A stretch of DNA of 32,000 nucleotides. It comes from Geobacter metallireducens GS-15 (GTDB lineage Bacteria; Desulfobacterota; Desulfuromonadia; Geobacterales; Geobacteraceae). Below the pieces are notes generated by a model that saw only the letters and a program-made list of their open reading frames with translations, did not search any database and was not told where the DNA came from. Positions 24,741-32,000 of this stretch are shown here, one piece after another. Where the stretch lies: positions 1,950,001 to 1,982,000 of the forward strand of contig NC_007517.1 of the NCBI RefSeq assembly GCF_000012925.1. The letters are read 5' to 3'. The position numbers and the translations under genes were made by a program. Numbering within the stretch: position 1 is the stretch's first letter; each line of letters opens with the position of its first letter.

Positions 24741-25307
24741 TCAGGAAGTCCCTTTCTGGAAAAAAGTGAGGGCGGTGTCGCCGTAAACCCTCCGGTCGAA
24801 CTGCTGCAATGCACCGAATCTTTCAGGAAAAACTTCACTCGAATCCGATTCAGATACAATGATTGTTTCCCTGGTGACAAACGGTGCTGAGGCCAAAATG
24901 CCGAGGACCTTTTCAGCCAAACCCTGCCGATAGGGAGGGTCGAGGAAAATGATGGTGAACGGTGCAATATTTTCGTTAAGACATTGCAGTGCTGAAGCAG
25001 CGTCTTTTACGATAACCCTGCCTCTGTCTGTGAGATTGAGTTGGGTGAGGTTCTGCCGGATAATGGCGGCCGACTCCCGGTGGCTGTCGACGAATATTGC
25101 CTCGCTGCACCCCCGGCTCAGGGCCTCGATGCCGAGATTGCCGGTTCCGGCGAAGACGTCGAGAACTCTCAGTCCCTCCAGGTTCCCCAGAAGGGAGGTG
25201 AGAATGCTGAACAATGCCTCCTTGACCCGATCCGCAGTGGGGCGTACCCGTTCGCCCCGCGGGGCGGCAAGGCGGCGTCCCCGCGCGGTTCCACCGATGA
25301 CTCTCAC
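24741..25307 (-). CDS. rsmD: 16S rRNA (guanine966-N2)-methyltransferase
   Basis: MRVIGGTARGRRL..P.....RPT.DRVKEALFSIL, VLDVFAGTGNLGIEALSRG and IIFLDPPY. The GTG start overlaps the aldolase stop (GTGA). Confidence 0.9.
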   Translation of the reverse strand: MRVIGGTARGRRLAAPRGERVRPTADRVKEALFSILTSLLGNLEGLRVLDVFAGTGNLGIEALSRGCSEAIFVDSHRESAAIIRQNLTQLNLTDRGRVIVKDAASALQCLNENIAPFTIIFLDPPYRQGLAEKVLGILASAPFVTRETIIVSESDSSEVFPERFGALQQFDRRVYGDTALTFFQKGTS

Positions 25308-26389
25308 CGGGGTTTCCCGATGGAGGCGGCCAGTCGGGAGGCGCTTCCCTTGGCGTGGAACGCCTGAAGAAACTCCTTGGCTTCGCGGTATGCCATGTCA
25401 AAAATCTGCTTTGCATTCTCCTCGGGTATCGCGTCGATCTCGGATTTGAATATTTTTGTGGCGAATTTTATGTCCTTGCCGTTCTCCCGTGCCCAGTGGC
25501 GCATGGCGTCCATGAGGTCGAGGGGAAGCCCTGCATGGGCCACGTTTTGCCAGAGGGTGCCGATGTTTCCCTTGCGGATACCATAGTTGGCCAGTTTGCC
25601 CACGAGCCTAAGGGGAGTTCCGGTAATACCGTGCTGTACCAATCCCGCAAGGCCGAGGCGAACGGCGGCGTCGTAGATTTCCTTTGTCCGGTCCAGATCG
25701 ATTCTGATCATCTCGCCGTCCAGGTAATTTCCCCGCTTGGAGCCGTTGTCAATGGCAAGGAGTTGGGGATGAATCCCTTTTTTCACGAGACAGGACAAAA
25801 ATTCTTGAGTTTCCTCCACCGTGGTCAGGTTCGATTCAACTCCTGCCCGCTTGACTTCCCCCAGTTCCACCTCAAGGCCGTACCCCTCGTTCTCGACGGT
25901 TGCCGCCAATTCAGCGGTGATTCGAATATTGTCCGGCAGAGGATTGAAAGAAGCGTCGATGGCGAAGGAGGTATAACCCGCTTTGACCTGTCCCTCAATG
26001 AGAAGTCGGGCGCGCTCCTGCTCTTCGGGAGAGGTGTTCTGGACGGTGGTGTGGTCGCCGTGGATGATGAACGGTTTTGTGAATTTGTACCGTTCGGCGC
26101 ATTCGATTACCGTGTCGAAAAATACCTGTGGGGTTTGACCGGTGTAGCCTCCATTGAGTCCCCCTTCGGTGCGGGTCAGCTCGAAGGCGATCACGGCATC
26201 GAGTTCCTCGGCGGCCTTCATGATGCCGGGAATGACATGTTTGATCCGTGGGTTGCAGGCCATGAGGATCAAATTTTCGTTTTTGAGAGCGGAGAACAAG
26301 TCGCGGCCATTGAGAAGGCAGATTCGCGACTGTGACCCGATCTTGTTGCGGATTCGCGGAGGAACCAATTCGAGGAGATCATTTATCAT
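25304..26389 (-). CDS. class II fructose/ketose-bisphosphate aldolase family protein
   Basis: TIM-barrel aldolase blocks are PFIIHGDHTTV, SFAIDASF, VELGEV and GLVQHGITGTP. The subfamily cannot be resolved by eye. Confidence 0.75.
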   Translation of the reverse strand: MINDLLELVPPRIRNKIGSQSRICLLNGRDLFSALKNENLILMACNPRIKHVIPGIMKAAEELDAVIAFELTRTEGGLNGGYTGQTPQVFFDTVIECAERYKFTKPFIIHGDHTTVQNTSPEEQERARLLIEGQVKAGYTSFAIDASFNPLPDNIRITAELAATVENEGYGLEVELGEVKRAGVESNLTTVEETQEFLSCLVKKGIHPQLLAIDNGSKRGNYLDGEMIRIDLDRTKEIYDAAVRLGLAGLVQHGITGTPLRLVGKLANYGIRKGNIGTLWQNVAHAGLPLDLMDAMRHWARENGKDIKFATKIFKSEIDAIPEENAKQIFDMAYREAKEFLQAFHAKGSASRLAASIGKPR

Positions 26390-26490
26390 AATGTTCAGTA
26401 TGTAATCCTGGCAAAAAGTTGATATTCTTAAAAAAGGCTTAGAAATTTAGCATGATACGCCAATTGTAGTCAATGGATATCTTTTCGCCA

Positions 26491-26519
26491 TTGACACCCC
26501 CGGGAAGCGACATTAGAGT
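26491..26519 (+). promoter_or_regulatory. sigma-70-type promoter candidate for the dgt-like gene
   Basis: TTGACA (26491-26496), 17-nt spacer, TAGAGT (26514-26519). It lies 26 nt upstream of the ATG. Confidence 0.45.
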
Positions 26520-26544
26520 TGGGCGGAATGGGAGGAGAGGGGAT

Positions 26545-27702
26545 ATGACTGAAGGAGTTGAAGGACGTTCCCAGGAGCGCTCCGATCTGGCCGGCTTTGC
26601 GGCGCGAAGTGCTGAATCCCGTGGCAGGAAGTATCAGGAAGCATTTCGTGATCATCGCCCTGCCTTTGAGCGGGACCGGGACAGAATTATCCACTGCGCG
26701 GCATTTCGTCGCCTGGAATACAAGACCCAGGTGTTCGTCAATCATGAAGGGGACTACTATCGTACCCGGCTCACCCACTCCCTCGAAGTGGCCCAGATAG
26801 GGAAGGCTATCGCCCGGCGATTGGGGGTGAACGAGGAATTGACCGAAGCGTTGGCCCTTGCCCATGACCTGGGACATACTCCCTTCGGCCACACGGGAGA
26901 AGAGGTCCTGAATCGCCTTATGGAGGGGTTCGGCGGCTTTGAGCATAACCTTCAGTCGTTTCGGGTGGTAGACCAACTGGAGGAGAGGTACCCCGGTTTC
27001 AATGGTCTCAATCTTTCATGGGAGGTGCTCGAAGGGATCGTCAAGCATTCTTCCCCCTATGACCGGCCGGTGGGGGTGATCGACAGGTTCCTTCCCGGCG
27101 TGGTGCCGACCATTGAGGCGCAGATCATCAATTATGCCGACGAGATTGCCTACAATAATCACGACATCGACGACGGGCTCAAATCCGGTTTCATAACCCT
27201 TGACCAACTCGATGGCGTGGAGCTTTGGCGGGAGGTTCACGAGGGAATAGCCAGGGCTTATCCTGATATCGATCCGGAGCGGCGTAAGCTTCAGACCATC
27301 AGTGCCCTTATCGGTGTTTTCATCAAGGATCTGACCACCACTAGCCTGGAAAACGTTCAACGCCTTCGCATCACTTCTCTGGATGATCTGCGAAGGATTA
27401 ACCGTCCAGTGGTGGCCTTTAGCCCTGCCACGGCTGAAAAAAATCGTAAGCTCAAAGGGTTTCTTTTTGAAAACCTCTACCGTCACTATAGGGTTGAGCG
27501 GATGCGGGTGAAAGCCGAGCGCTATCTGCGTCAGCTCTTCGAATCCTACGTGAAGCACCCGACGCTTTTACCGCGCAAATATCAGAAAAAAATGGAGATC
27601 CTGGGACGTGAGCGGGTCGTGTGCGACTATATAGCCGGAATGACAGACCGCTTCGCTCTCGATGAATTCAAGCGTCTTTTTGAGCCGTATGAAAGAGTTT
27701 GA
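26545..27702 (+). CDS. deoxyguanosinetriphosphate triphosphohydrolase-like HD-domain protein
   Basis: FERDRDRIIHCAAFRRLEYKTQVF, RTRLTHSLEVAQIGKAIA, LAHDLGHTPFGH and ADEIAYNNHDIDDG. The ATG at 26545 follows GGGAGGAG. The listed ORF (26473) was trimmed. Confidence 0.9.
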   Translation: MTEGVEGRSQERSDLAGFAARSAESRGRKYQEAFRDHRPAFERDRDRIIHCAAFRRLEYKTQVFVNHEGDYYRTRLTHSLEVAQIGKAIARRLGVNEELTEALALAHDLGHTPFGHTGEEVLNRLMEGFGGFEHNLQSFRVVDQLEERYPGFNGLNLSWEVLEGIVKHSSPYDRPVGVIDRFLPGVVPTIEAQIINYADEIAYNNHDIDDGLKSGFITLDQLDGVELWREVHEGIARAYPDIDPERRKLQTISALIGVFIKDLTTTSLENVQRLRITSLDDLRRINRPVVAFSPATAEKNRKLKGFLFENLYRHYRVERMRVKAERYLRQLFESYVKHPTLLPRKYQKKMEILGRERVVCDYIAGMTDRFALDEFKRLFEPYERV

Positions 27703-27787
27703 TCACATAACGGCCTGTTATCACAGAAGAATAGGGGTATATTCTTGACTTGTCGCCGCTATTGGGTTAGTGCTGTAGAAAAATGCA

Positions 27788-27875
27788 TTGATAGACGATA
27801 ATACTCAACCATTCGCGAGAATGGGGCGGAAAGCCTATAGGGTCTCATGCAGACAGCCGGGTTGCCGAAATATCA
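27788..27875 (+). promoter_or_regulatory. GEMM-I cyclic-dinucleotide riboswitch aptamer (c-di-GMP or 3'3'-cGAMP class)
   Basis: AACCAUUC-GCGA-GAAUGGGGCGGAAAGCC...AGCCGGGUUGCCGAAA parallels the V. cholerae Vc2 core AAACCAUUC-GAAA-GAGUGGGACGCAAAGCC...AGCGGGGUUACCGAUGG. The P1 hairpin is at 27809-27824 with a GNRA loop (GCGA). A possible closing helix is TGATA (27789-27793) with TATCA (27871-27875). Confidence 0.75.
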
Positions 27876-27904
27876 TTTTAGAATGATGCGGCCCCGGCTT
27901 TTTT
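27856..27904 (+). terminator. riboswitch expression-platform terminator
   Basis: GCCGGG (27856-27861, shared with the aptamer 3' core) pairs with CCCGGC (27893-27898). An inner hairpin is ATCATT-TTAG-AATGAT. T6 follows at 27899-27904, 62 nt before the downstream ATG. Confidence 0.7.
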
Positions 27905-27966
27905 GCGTCCAGCCACCTTGGGTGCTATAGTGGTCAAGGTAATCTTATCGAGAAAGGAAATTCTTT

Positions 27967-28518
27967 ATGAAAAAATTTCTTACGGTCCTACCTTTGTTTT
28001 TTGCAACGGTGTCCCCGTCGTTTGCTGCTTCCGACGTTGGTTTTGACGTGAATATCAACGTCGGAAACCGCTCTGGTGTTGTGATTCCGGCCCCCCCGGC
28101 GGTAGTGGTCCCGGCTCCGCGGGTTGTGATTGAGGAACCCCCGCTTTTTATTGCACCTCCTCGTCTCGGTTTCTATGTTGGTGTCGATATCCCCTACGAT
28201 ATTTTTTACATCTCCGGTCGTTACTATCTCTGGCAAGATAATTACTGGTACCGTGCGCCCAGCTACGGGGGACCATGGACCGTGGTCAATCACAGAAACC
28301 TCCCCCCCGGACTCCGCAAACACAAACTGGAGCGGATTCGTTACTACCGCGATGACGAGTATCGAGTATACAGCCATGAACATGATCATTATCGGGGCAA
28401 ACATTTCAAGCCGGGGAAAGAGTACAAGGAGCGCTACAAGGAGGAGCGGAAGCGGGAAAAGCGCGAATATAAACACCATGGCGAGGAAAAGGGTCATGGG
28501 CACGGGCACGACGACTGA
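27967..28518 (+). CDS. secreted hypothetical protein with aromatic W/Y core and basic, His-rich tail
   Basis: Signal peptide MKKFLTVLPLFFATVSPSFA|AS. Pro-rich segment (IPAPPAVVVPAPRVVIEEPP). Core YYLWQDNYWYRAPSYGGPW. The tail is KEYKERYKEERKREKREYKHHGEEKGHGHGHDD. Confidence 0.75.
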   Translation: MKKFLTVLPLFFATVSPSFAASDVGFDVNINVGNRSGVVIPAPPAVVVPAPRVVIEEPPLFIAPPRLGFYVGVDIPYDIFYISGRYYLWQDNYWYRAPSYGGPWTVVNHRNLPPGLRKHKLERIRYYRDDEYRVYSHEHDHYRGKHFKPGKEYKERYKEERKREKREYKHHGEEKGHGHGHDD

Positions 28519-28552
28519 AACTGAAGTTGTCAGCGCCTGATCGAGATAAGAT

Positions 28553-28584
28553 AAAAAAAGCCCGGAGAAATCCGGGCTTTTTTT
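28553..28584. terminator. bidirectional intrinsic terminator
   Basis: A7-GCCCGGA-GAAA-TCCGGGC-T7 lies between the convergent secreted-protein gene and yhbY. Confidence 0.85.
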
Positions 28585-28604
28585 CTGGTCATGGAATGGA
28601 TGCG

Positions 28605-28901
28605 TTACTTCCCCTTGGGAAGCTCCAGTTTCGGTTCCTCGGCCTTGCGGTAAAGCAGGAAAGTTCTCCCGAGCACCTGGGCGACCTCTGCGCCACAGGC
28701 TTTCGCCAACTCGTCGGCCACCTCGTGACGGTCCATTATGCAGCTTTCGAGAATCTTCACCTTGATGAGTTCGTGATGCTCGAGTGCTTCGCTGGTTTCG
28801 CGCACGAGGGGAGTGGAGATTTCTCCTTTGCCAACTGTAATTACGGGATTGAGGCTGTGCCCCATCCCACGAAGAAAGCGTTTCTGTTTTCCGGTCAGCA
28901 T
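28605..28901 (-). CDS. yhbY: YhbY/CRS1-type RNA-binding protein
   Basis: LTGKQKRFLRGMGHSLNPVITVGKGEISTPLVRETSEALEHHELIKVKI matches the YhbY signature. The listed ORF (29111) was trimmed to the ATG at 28901, preceded by AAAGGAA. Confidence 0.85.
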   Translation of the reverse strand: MLTGKQKRFLRGMGHSLNPVITVGKGEISTPLVRETSEALEHHELIKVKILESCIMDRHEVADELAKACGAEVAQVLGRTFLLYRKAEEPKLELPKGK

Positions 28902-29035
28902 GCTGGTTCCTTTAATTGTGGTTGTTCGAGCTGCCGGACGTATAGCATGAATCAAACGGCAAGGCAACGCAGGTACGCTCGTTAATTCCTTGATTCCGGC
29001 TAATGCCGGCCCGGGCCAAGGCATGAGCCCTCTGG

Positions 29036-30424
29036 TTACTGCAGCACCACAGCGCTGATCGTGTTCAGGAGCAGTTCCTTTTTGATCGGTTTGGCAAGGT
29101 GCGTTGTGCAACCGGCTTCCCGTGCCCTGAGATAATCGCTGCGTTCAGGACCGGCCGTGAGAGCAACGACGGGCACCGGCGTCCGGTCATGCGTTCGCTC
29201 CCATTCCCGGATCTTCCTCGTGGCCGAAAGGCCATCCATGACCGGCATCTGAATGTCCATGATAATTACGTCATAGTTGCTGGAAGTGAACTTCTTCAAC
29301 GCCTCTTCTCCGTTATGGGCCATATCGACGGCATGGGAGGTGGTTCCGAGAAAGGCGCCGAGAAGCATTCGTATTTCCGCGGCGTCTTCTGCCAGAAGAA
29401 TCCGAAGGCTCCGTTCCGGCAGACTCTTTGATTTTCTGCGTTCTACTGCGGAGGAGAGAAGGGGGGGCGTAACTCCCAGTCGGGCGTTGAACACGAAAGA
29501 AGTTCCCTTTCCCTCCTTGCTCGTCACTCTGATCGTGCCCCCCATCAAGCCGACAAGCCTCTTGGCGATGTTTAGTCCAAGCCCTGTTCCTCCATAGGTG
29601 CGGAACGTAGCCGGAGATGCCTGGGCGTATCGCTCGAAAATTTCTTCGAGCTTGTCACCGGGAATGCCGATCCCCGTATCCTGAATGGTGAAGATGAGCT
29701 GCATTTCCTGGGAAGCCAACGATGATGCTTCCGGTTCAACGGTGATGATGATCTTCCCCTGTTCGGTAAACTTGATGGCATTACCGGCCAGATTGAGGAT
29801 CACCTGCTGAAGGCGCTTCGGATCACCGACAAGTTGGGCAGGAATGTCGGGTGACAGGTGATATTCCAGTTCAAGACCTTTTCTGCCCGCCTGCCAGGCG
29901 ATAAGTTGTGCCGTTCTTTCGAGCAGTTCCCGAAACGGAAATTCAATTTGGTCAAGGTGAATACGTCCTGCGTCAAGCCGTGAGTTGTCAAGAAGATCAT
30001 TGACAAGAGAAAGAAGAAATTCGCCTGCATGATTGAAGGCATTCAGGTATTCAGTCTGTTTCTTGTCGAGGGGGGTTTCGCGGAGCAATTCGACGGCACC
30101 GGTCAGCATTTGTATTTGAGAGCGGATTTCATGACTCACCAGGGCGAGAAGATCTTCTTTTGAGTGGCAGGCAGCTTCGGCTGAAACCTTGGCTCGCTTG
30201 AGATCCCGTTCGATATTTTTCCTCTCGGCCAGTTCCGCCTTCAATTCGACGAGAAGATGTTCGAGTTCAACGATTCGATCGGCATCCGTTACGGCTGTCG
30301 TTCCGGTCTGGGTCACGGTCGGTGTTCCTCTCGACGCACTGTATTTAGCTTGTAATGGATGAGCCGGCTCTTTATGCCGGTGGCAGCAAATCGCCAAATC
30401 AATAATGACGCCTAATCTTGACAT
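29036..30424 (-). CDS. hybrid sensor histidine kinase (coiled coil-HisKA-HATPase-REC) with no recognisable sensor domain
   Basis: H-box [10 protein letters not shown]-box [11 protein letters not shown]1 DTGIGI, G2 GGTGLGL and a C-terminal receiver (ILLAEDA...[13 protein letters not shown]...VVALTA...LAKP). The start was moved from 30589, which would overlap lepA, to the ATG at 30424. The start remains uncertain. Confidence 0.8.
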
Positions 30425-30566
30425 TTGTATATCACAGCTCCAGGGGCTCGGCAATCGCAGAAGTGGCGGAGAATTAATGCTGGATGTATCCGGAGAATAC
30501 CCTTTACAAAATCTCCCTCTTTCGGCTATTGTTCTACGGTTACACTCATTTAACGACAAGGTGTCT

Positions 30567-32000
30567 ATGAAGATCGAAAATATCCGCAATTTTTCAATAA
30601 TTGCTCATATCGACCACGGCAAGTCCACCCTTGCAGACCGGCTCCTGGAGTATACCGGTGCCCTTTCCGAGCGAGAGAGGCAGGATCAGTTCCTCGACAA
30701 GATGGATCTGGAGCGGGAGCGCGGGATAACCATCAAGGCCCAGACCGTCCGCCTGAATTACCGGGCCGACGACGGGAAGGATTACGTGCTGAACCTGATC
30801 GATACGCCGGGACATGTGGACTTCACCTACGAAGTTTCCCGCTCTCTCGCTGCCTGCGAGGGGGGACTTCTGGTGGTGGATGCCTCTCAGGGGGTTGAGG
30901 CCCAGACCCTCGCCAATGTCTATCTGGCCATCGACAACAACCTTGAGGTCTTTCCCGTTCTGAACAAAATCGACCTCCCGGCGGCGGAACCGGAGCGGGT
31001 CAAGCACGAGATCGAGGAGATCATCGGCCTGGACGCCCACGATGCGGTGCTTGCCAGCGCCAAAGAAGGGATCGGGACCCGGGAGATCCTGGAAGAGATC
31101 GTAAAAAAGATCCCTCCCCCGGAGGGAGACCCGGCCGCGCCGCTCAAGGCTCTGCTCTTTGATTCGTGGTATGACCAGTACCAGGGAGTCATTATTCTGG
31201 CGAGGCTCATCGATGGCATCCTCAAGAAGGGTGATAAGATCCAGCTCGTCTCCACCGGACGTAGCTACGAGGCCCTTAAAGTTGGTGTTTTCGCCCCGGT
31301 GATGCGGGAGGTGCCCCAGTTGTCGGCCGGTGAGGTCGGCTTTGTCATTGCCGGCATCAAGGACGTTGCCGACGCCAAGATCGGCGATACCGTCACCCAT
31401 ACCCTCAAGCCCTGTACGACCCCCCTCGGCGGTTTCAAGGAAGTGAAGCCCATGGTCTTCTCGGGGCTCTACCCCATCGACACTTCGCAATACGAACAGC
31501 TTCGCGATGCGTTGGCCAAACTCAAACTCAATGATTCCTCCTTCTCCTACGAGCCGGAGACATCACTGGCGCTGGGATTCGGCTTCCGGTGCGGCTTTCT
31601 GGGGCTTCTCCACATGGAGATCATCCAGGAGCGGCTGGAGCGGGAGTTCAATCTCGACCTCATCACCACCGCGCCAACGGTCGTTTACAGGGTCCACCGG
31701 ATCAAAGGCGACATGATCTCCATCGAGAGTGCCAACCAACTCCCCCCGACCCAGGAGATCGACTATGTAGAGGAGCCGTTCATCCTTGCCTCCATCCACA
31801 CCCCCAATGAGTTCGTCGGCGGAATTCTTGCCCTGTGCGAGGAGAAGCGCGGGGTGCAGCGGGAGATCAAGTACCTGACCCCGACGCGGGTCATGATCAT
31901 CTACGAACTCCCCCTGAACGAGGTGGTGCTCGATTTTTACGACCGGCTCAAGTCCATCACCAAGGGGTATGCCTCCCTTGATTACGAACATCTGGACTAT
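30567..32000 (+). CDS. lepA: translation elongation factor 4 (LepA), 3'-partial
   Basis: The ORF is absent from the track because it has no stop in the window. My own translation from the ATG at 30567 is [31 protein letters not shown]...[14 protein letters not shown]...LNKIDLP, which are G1-G4 GTPase motifs in LepA order. The frame stays open to base 32000. Confidence 0.95.

Follow-up and report, generated by a model that had tools for sequence, protein, structure and literature searches.

The element upstream of gene Gmet_1763 in the window (the whole stretch of 32 000 nt of Geobacter metallireducens DNA that was analysed, to which the coordinates below refer) is very probably the Gm1763 riboswitch, a 3′3′-cGAMP-sensing (GEMM-Ib) member of the GEMM-I family that works as a transcriptional ON switch. 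Gm1763 is already known as a catalogued cGAMP element, and the question of its ligand resolves to 3′3′-cGAMP. As it is listed in a published table, the riboswitch itself holds nothing new; possible novelty sits with the gene under its control. It belongs to the catalogued set of cGAMP riboswitches through which cGAMP signalling in Geobacter is linked to surface and electron-transfer functions. The practical yield of our analysis is a coordinate-level anatomy of the element, evidence of a wide pairing of riboswitch and gene, and a pointer to an uncharacterised target protein. The element had originally been predicted by eye; such a reading of sequence can recover a genuine riboswitch together with its switching logic, and it added no new biology.

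Family assignment and published ligand

In a scan of the whole window with Rfam 15, the only family found above its gathering score was RF01051 (c-di-GMP-I), with a match at 27793-27869 on the plus strand. The match, at 42.0 bits (gathering score 35), covered the full length of the model (positions 1-87); its E-value of 3.9e-5 was computed over the whole window and 4227 families. The original prediction had named a GEMM-I cyclic-dinucleotide riboswitch here and had proposed a covariance-model search as a check; the RF01051 score bears out this call, the match is significant, and the specificity position can be read in the alignment. Directly established for Gm1763 are its family membership and, as described in the sections below, the A at the specificity position, the conserved and covarying structure and a terminator that excludes the aptamer.

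A sensitive search of the gap upstream of Gmet_1763 gave 42.9 bits for RF03167 (c-di-GMP-I-GGC variant), below the gathering score of 59 for this family. We rejected membership in RF03167: its score was marginally above the RF01051 score in the short search but far under its own gathering score. Other low-scoring Rfam matches in the gap (snoRNA, poxvirus elements) were regarded as chance.

GEMM-I riboswitches of G. metallireducens have been compiled in Table S2 of PMC12285248, where Gm1763 is given as cGAMP, reporting Nelson 2015 and Kellenberger 2015; other entries of the table read ‘c-di-GMP’, ‘cGAMP, c-di-GMP’, ‘Undetermined’ or ‘Not tested’. That the element might belong to the cGAMP subclass had been raised in the original prediction, and both the table and nucleotide A27803 (see below) bear this out. 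The same study reported that Gmet1763 was up by log2 0.93 (P<0.01) in a strain with higher cGAMP and by log2 0.56, not significant, in a high-c-di-GMP strain (PMC12285248).

Aptamer structure and ligand pocket

The aptamer was resolved into the following features.

27789-27875, plus strand: complete GEMM-Ib aptamer including P1 (RF01051 match at 27793-27869; P1 pairs from the RF03167 alignment)
27789-27793/27871-27875 and 27796-27797/27866-27867, plus strand: P1, an outer helix of 5 bp and two inner pairs
C27804-G27829, U27805-G27828 and 27809-27814/27819-27824, plus strand: P2, the base pairs and the 6-bp stem, capped by a GCGA tetraloop
27832-27835/27860-27863, 27840-27841/27857-27858 and 27842-27844/27852-27854, plus strand: P3
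27803, plus strand: specificity nucleotide A, aligned to the consensus G directly 5′ of the first P2 pair (RF01051, RF03167)
27830, plus strand: equivalent of Vc2 A47, the first A past the P2 closing pair in the model alignment; invariant
27865, plus strand: equivalent of Vc2 C92 and pilM C75, the first C of GCCG; invariant in the alignment

Standard pairs were present at all 19 of the 19 aptamer pairs tested. In P1, UAUCA (27871-27875) is able to pair with UGAUA (27789-27793), and a purine-rich internal loop separates this outer helix from the inner pairs. The P2 hairpin, AACCAUUC-GCGA-GAAUGG at 27807-27825, has the GNRA loop GCGA, with the stem reading CCAUUC-GCGA-GAAUGG; the core segments GGCGGAAAGCC and AGCCGGGUUGCCGAAA were both found in the gap. 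Thus, the GNRA-capped hairpin and the core segments picked out by eye are all present in the sequence, the hairpin being P2.

It is known that in cGAMP-binding GEMM-Ib riboswitches an adenine replaces G20 (A14 in Gs1761) and pairs with the adenine of cGAMP (PMC6140456). While the ligand could not be assigned by eye, the covariance-model alignment now places A27803 at the position of Vc2 G20 (A14 in Gs1761), and this A is invariant in 31/31 aligned aptamers; A27803 is expected to pair with the cGAMP adenine. An A at the G20 position does not by itself make an RNA selective: both ligands are bound by Vc2 G20A, and bispecificity is also seen in some natural GEMM-Ib RNAs (PMC6140456). C27865 should make a Watson-Crick pair with the ligand guanine; its counterpart in the pilM riboswitch, C75, has been named as the ligand-pairing base (PMC9262584). 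Vc2 A47, to which A27830 corresponds, is the adenine stacking between the two ligand bases (PMC6140456, PMC5888326). We checked the register against the pilM riboswitch (sequence from the SI of PMC9262584): the window numbering equals the pilM numbering +1, and the pilM U15-G38 pair and C75 (PMC9262584) correspond to U27805-G27828 and C27865.

Terminator and proposed mechanism of switching

The 3′ half of the aptamer is also part of a second structure, for which we list the following features.

27855-27904, plus strand: intrinsic terminator, from the minimum-free-energy fold; three-tier hairpin kept in related leaders
27855-27861/27893-27899 (lower), 27864-27867/27889-27892 (middle) and 27871-27877/27882-27888 (upper), plus strand: terminator stems
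27899-27904, plus strand: terminator U tract (U6)
27955-27958, plus strand: Shine-Dalgarno-like AGGA, read from the sequence, 8 nt before the ATG

At minimum free energy the leader folds into the terminator hairpin rather than the aptamer (−44.3 kcal/mol for the whole leader), with z = −3.6 in comparison with shuffles. The base of the terminator is formed by GCCGGG (27856-27861) with CCCGGC (27893-27898), and directly after it comes T6 (27899-27904), exactly as had been noticed by eye; the dual pairing suggested earlier for UAUCA, either with the upstream UGAUA or within an AUCAUU/AAUGAU hairpin, was confirmed as well. In its first 21 nt (27855-27875) the terminator uses the 3′ strands of P3 and P1; therefore, the aptamer and the terminator are mutually exclusive, and the layout proposed in the original prediction holds, with the terminator at 27855-27904 reusing the 3′ half of the aptamer. 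Stabilisation of the aptamer by its ligand would remove the terminator, which gives the element ON logic. The AGGA sequence is situated ∼50 nt past the terminator, outside the switch; being well beyond the hairpin and unsequestered, it argues for control at the transcription level.

Nearest-neighbour folding energies were −41.4 kcal/mol for the terminator versus −13.4 kcal/mol for the aptamer topology. With the terminator far more stable by this energy model, switching would have to be kinetic and ligand-driven. One could envisage the following course of events. Transcription starts probably near 27780, and in the growing leader positions 27789-27875 could fold as the P1/P2/P3 aptamer. There cGAMP would be held in three ways: by pairing of its adenine with A27803, by pairing of its guanine with C27865, and by A27830 stacked between its bases. 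Binding would stabilise P1 and P3, sequestering 27855-27875, the 5′ half of the terminator, and RNA polymerase would then read through into Gmet_1763. In the case of no cGAMP, the more stable terminator hairpin (27855-27899 and U6) would form and transcription would end ahead of the gene. Such a mechanism is that of the pilM riboswitch, transferred to Gm1763 by analogy with this close paralog.

Conservation across Geobacterales

A profile of the 183-aa protein family encoded downstream was scanned against one genome per species, which gave 80 loci. We observed an RF01051 match directly upstream and on the same strand at 28 of the 80 homolog loci; the aptamer-carrying loci came from Geobacter, Geotalea, Geomonas and uncultured Geobacterales. 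In the alignment of 31 sequences the aptamer was 82% identical on average, with A27803, A27830 and C27865 invariant. Across the 29 distinct sequences, the aptamer structure given above had 99.5% of cells paired, while slid controls reached at most 53%. Four pairs of P2 were changed on both sides in these 29 sequences, and the covariation score was reached by 0 of 500 shuffles; as most aptamer pairs never vary, the covariation evidence is limited to P2.

The terminator is also kept. Related leaders retain the AUAUC...GAUAU / GCCG-CGGC / GCCGGG-CCCGGC hairpin and, after it, a stretch rich in T, where 25 of 29 related leaders have an unbroken run of at least 5 T; the sequence of the upper stem differs between lineages, with the pairing kept. 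Given the RF01051 score, the z-value of the fold and the recurrence upstream of 28 homologs, the Gm1763 match is more than chance.

Two related genomes carried extra near-identical GEMM-Ib aptamers before other genes (L059:4694-4770, minus strand, and L086:383-459, plus strand). These extra copies are situated within 2 kb of the homologous gene, and this type of aptamer is multi-copy in both genomes.

Promoter and gene context

The gap and its surroundings contain the following features.

27745-27773, plus strand: putative sigma-70-type promoter (−35 TTGACT at 27745-27750, 17-nt spacer, −10 TAGTGC at 27768-27773)
27967-28518, plus strand: regulated gene Gmet_1763 (from the ORF list), with a 183-aa product
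28553-28584, no strand assigned: palindromic terminator from a terminator scan, with a 14-bp stem and flanks A7 and T7; it closes a one-gene unit

Between the end of the dgt-like ORF (27702) and the start of the following ORF (27967) there are 264 nt, the gap that had been described downstream of the dgt-like gene. CTTGAC was found invariant in the leaders of eight orthologous loci; ∼17 nt downstream there is a TA-rich hexamer, TAGTGC here and TATTAA in several relatives. The conserved CTTGAC and the TA-rich hexamer suggest a promoter at 27745-27773, with a start near 27780. A scan for consensus promoters found no plus-strand promoter in the 264-nt gap; the candidate at 27745-27773 was missed because its −10 element is weak in G. 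metallireducens. The promoter and start site, like the ligand contacts in this particular RNA, are thus predicted from sequence.

Locus tags match the gene order in the window: Gmet_1761 is a class II fructose-bisphosphate aldolase, Gmet_1762 a dGTPase (deoxyguanosinetriphosphate triphosphohydrolase in the gene table of PMC12285248) and Gmet_1765 an ATP-binding (kinase) protein. With this order, the gene downstream of the riboswitch is Gmet_1763. We also considered as a target Gmet_0131, the sole gene with the annotation ‘YXWGXW repeat’ among those in the published riboswitch table, and rejected it, since it neighbours an XRE regulator and an IS110 transposase, a context unlike that in the window.

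The perfect palindrome A7-GCCCGGA...TCCGGGC-T7 sits between the convergent genes Gmet_1763 and yhbY; the terminator at 28553-28584 probably serves both strands, i.e. both of these genes.

Comparisons with two assemblies gave further observations on this region. Over 6.5 kb, GCA_000243475.2 is 99.985% identical to the window, the sole difference being one extra G in a G-run at position 29461. This position falls inside a minus-strand hybrid histidine kinase ORF (29036-30589), which is a single ORF in the window but is split into two gene calls (334 aa and 110 aa) in GCA_000243475.2; the difference is either a frameshift or an assembly error. With respect to GCA_018531165.1, all 54 of 54 substitutions lie in the rsmD, aldolase and dgt genes (24999-27054), while no difference was found over 27055-31518 (4.4 kb), a stretch that holds the riboswitch together with its gene. 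With divergence distributed so unevenly, a recombination boundary may lie near 27054.

Comparison with characterised riboswitches

Three points came from the literature: that Gm1763 is assigned to cGAMP, that the G. sulfurreducens ortholog depends on cGAMP in vivo, and how the paralogous pilM element switches. The pilM riboswitch, Gm0970, is the leader of Gmet_0970 in the same genome (PMC9262584, PMC8835794) and has 80% aptamer identity with Gm1763. The 77-nt core architecture of the two is the same and in register: each has a GCGA tetraloop, a P2 that is closed by C-G and U-G, an A as specificity nucleotide, a C to pair with the ligand, and a three-tier terminator made from the 3′ strands of P3 and P1. 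The sequences of the P2 stem, the P3 loop and the upper terminator stem differ, and so do the targets: pilM/Gm0970 controls an operon of a regulator plus pilMNOPQ, whereas Gm1763 controls a single small secreted protein. The pilM element has been characterised experimentally as a transcriptional ON switch, the terminator being kept from forming by cGAMP; P1 of pilM forms only with ligand, and the co-transcriptional binding window is short (PMC9262584). For Gm0970 a selectivity of roughly 1600-fold and a Kd of ∼16 nM are quoted in PMC8835794. There are thus measured affinities and co-transcriptional folding data for pilM, while in the literature we found none for Gm1763.

The positional ortholog of Gm1763 is GSUR3006, which precedes GSU1247 in G. 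sulfurreducens; the shared order is rsmD, fba, dgt, riboswitch and the homologous gene, and the downstream neighbours differ between the two loci. Supplementary file 1 of PMC6456294 has GSU1246 (dGTPase), GSUR3006 (riboswitch) and GSU1247 in this order, and GSU1247 of G. sulfurreducens PCA is 63% identical to the Gmet_1763 product. The two aptamers are 81% identical, and both elements have the specificity A and a terminator with a U tract; the base preceding the specificity A is G in GSUR3006 and U in Gm1763 (GAUAAGACU versus GAUAAUACU). In wild type, the esnD deletion and the gacA deletion, respectively, expression values were 431, 579 and 120 for GSU1247 and 113, 164 and 32 for the GSUR3006 riboswitch RNA (PMC6456294). 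Both GSU1247 and its leader fall about 3.5-3.6-fold without the cGAMP synthase GacA (PMC6456294), and this speaks for an activation of the positional ortholog that depends on cGAMP in vivo. While in vivo cGAMP dependence was measured for GSUR3006, only a modest RNA-seq shift has been reported for Gm1763.

In the G. sulfurreducens locus the element (L087:2833-2950) is annotated as a ‘cyclic diguanylate-responsive riboswitch’ despite its A20 signature and GacA dependence. Public annotation and the Rfam family name can therefore mislead about the ligand.

Likened by description, Gs1761 (pgcA; crystal structure 4YAZ, cited in PMC6140456 and PMC5888326) is GEMM-Ib like Gm1763 and an ON switch via a terminator, with its A14 corresponding to A27803; unlike Gm1763, it regulates an extracellular cytochrome. 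With the c-di-GMP-binding archetype of GEMM-I, Vc2 of Vibrio cholerae, Gm1763 has in common the RF01051 fold, the GNRA-capped P2 and the equivalents of A47 and C92. The differences are an A in place of G20, which would change the ligand to cGAMP, a much shorter P3 loop (3 nt in Gm1763 versus 15 in the model consensus) and an expression platform in which a terminator gives ON logic.

Alternative explanations

[quoted passage not shown] Gmet1763 was slightly up in both low- and high-c-di-GMP strains (PMC12285248), and the authors of that study invoke c-di-GMP binding for similar discrepancies. Still, the rise in the high-c-di-GMP strain was not significant, and Table S2 of the same paper gives ‘cGAMP’ alone for Gm1763 but ‘cGAMP, c-di-GMP’ for Gm0749, so bispecific cases were distinguished there. 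Furthermore, the ortholog GSU1247 drops 3.6-fold on removal of the cGAMP synthase alone (PMC6456294). Far less probable still is a canonical GEMM-I riboswitch sensing c-di-GMP. Such a reading might be drawn from the name of the best family above gathering score, c-di-GMP-I, and from the GenBank annotation of GSUR3006 as ‘cyclic diguanylate-responsive riboswitch’; however, as Rfam has no separate cGAMP model, the family name is uninformative on the ligand. The G20 equivalent is A in 31/31 relatives, the literature class of Gm1763 is cGAMP (Table S2, PMC12285248), and the ortholog needs GacA while deletion of gacA left c-di-GMP levels not significantly changed (PMC6456294).

One could also argue that the aptamer is a decayed or non-regulatory relic, with the hairpin being merely the dgt terminator or a constitutive attenuator: it is located 153-202 nt past the dgt stop codon and would also end dgt read-through, and the predicted −10 element is weak. 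Near-invariance of the aptamer, with compensatory changes across genera and always before the same gene family, is hard to reconcile with decay, and a conserved −35 element is situated between dgt and the aptamer. In addition, both the leader and the gene of the ortholog respond in vivo to deletion of the cGAMP synthase (PMC6456294), and we see very little chance that the element is such a relic. The cGAMP-sensing ON switch is the reading that we retain.

The regulated gene and its product

The product of Gmet_1763 carries a signal peptide and a WXXGXW/YXWGXW repeat, and its C-terminal tail is charged and His-rich; the tail is also rich in Lys, Glu and Arg and ends with HGHGHDD. A single match to PF12779 (WXXGXW) was found in it, with E = 6.3e-6, and NCBIfam assigned no family to the product. 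An exact copy of the 183-aa sequence is present in two NCBI assemblies, one of them GCA_000243475.2. A literature search revealed no relevant main-text mention of Gm1763/Gmet_1763 or GSU1247.

An AlphaFold2 model built from an alignment of 18 sequences has pLDDT > 90 for residues ∼55-150, and the modelled core consists of a small beta sheet followed by helices. In a Foldseek search of the PDB with this model no match was found below E = 1. Gmet_1763 and GSU1247 define a secreted protein family in Geobacterales, whose beta-sheet core contains the YXWGXW repeat and is accompanied by a long charged helix and a tail rich in His. We propose only tentatively, as a possibility with the odds against it, that this family is an uncharacterised periplasmic or extracellular component of a cGAMP-controlled programme of surface attachment and metal reduction.

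In the database, a G. metallireducens protein of 156 aa (P0002) begins at GTG 28048, codon 28 of the 183-aa ORF, and residues 29-183 of the Gmet_1763 product are identical to it. A start at 28048 would strip the signal peptide from the product. As the upstream 27 residues (MKK...FAASDVGFD) are conserved in orthologs, ATG 27967 is the likelier start, and the annotation of P0002 looks N-terminally truncated.

The second YXWGXW-repeat gene of G. metallireducens, Gmet_0131, is likewise listed behind a cGAMP riboswitch (Gm0131). The location of both Gmet_1763 and Gmet_0131 behind cGAMP riboswitches hints at a small cGAMP-controlled protein family.
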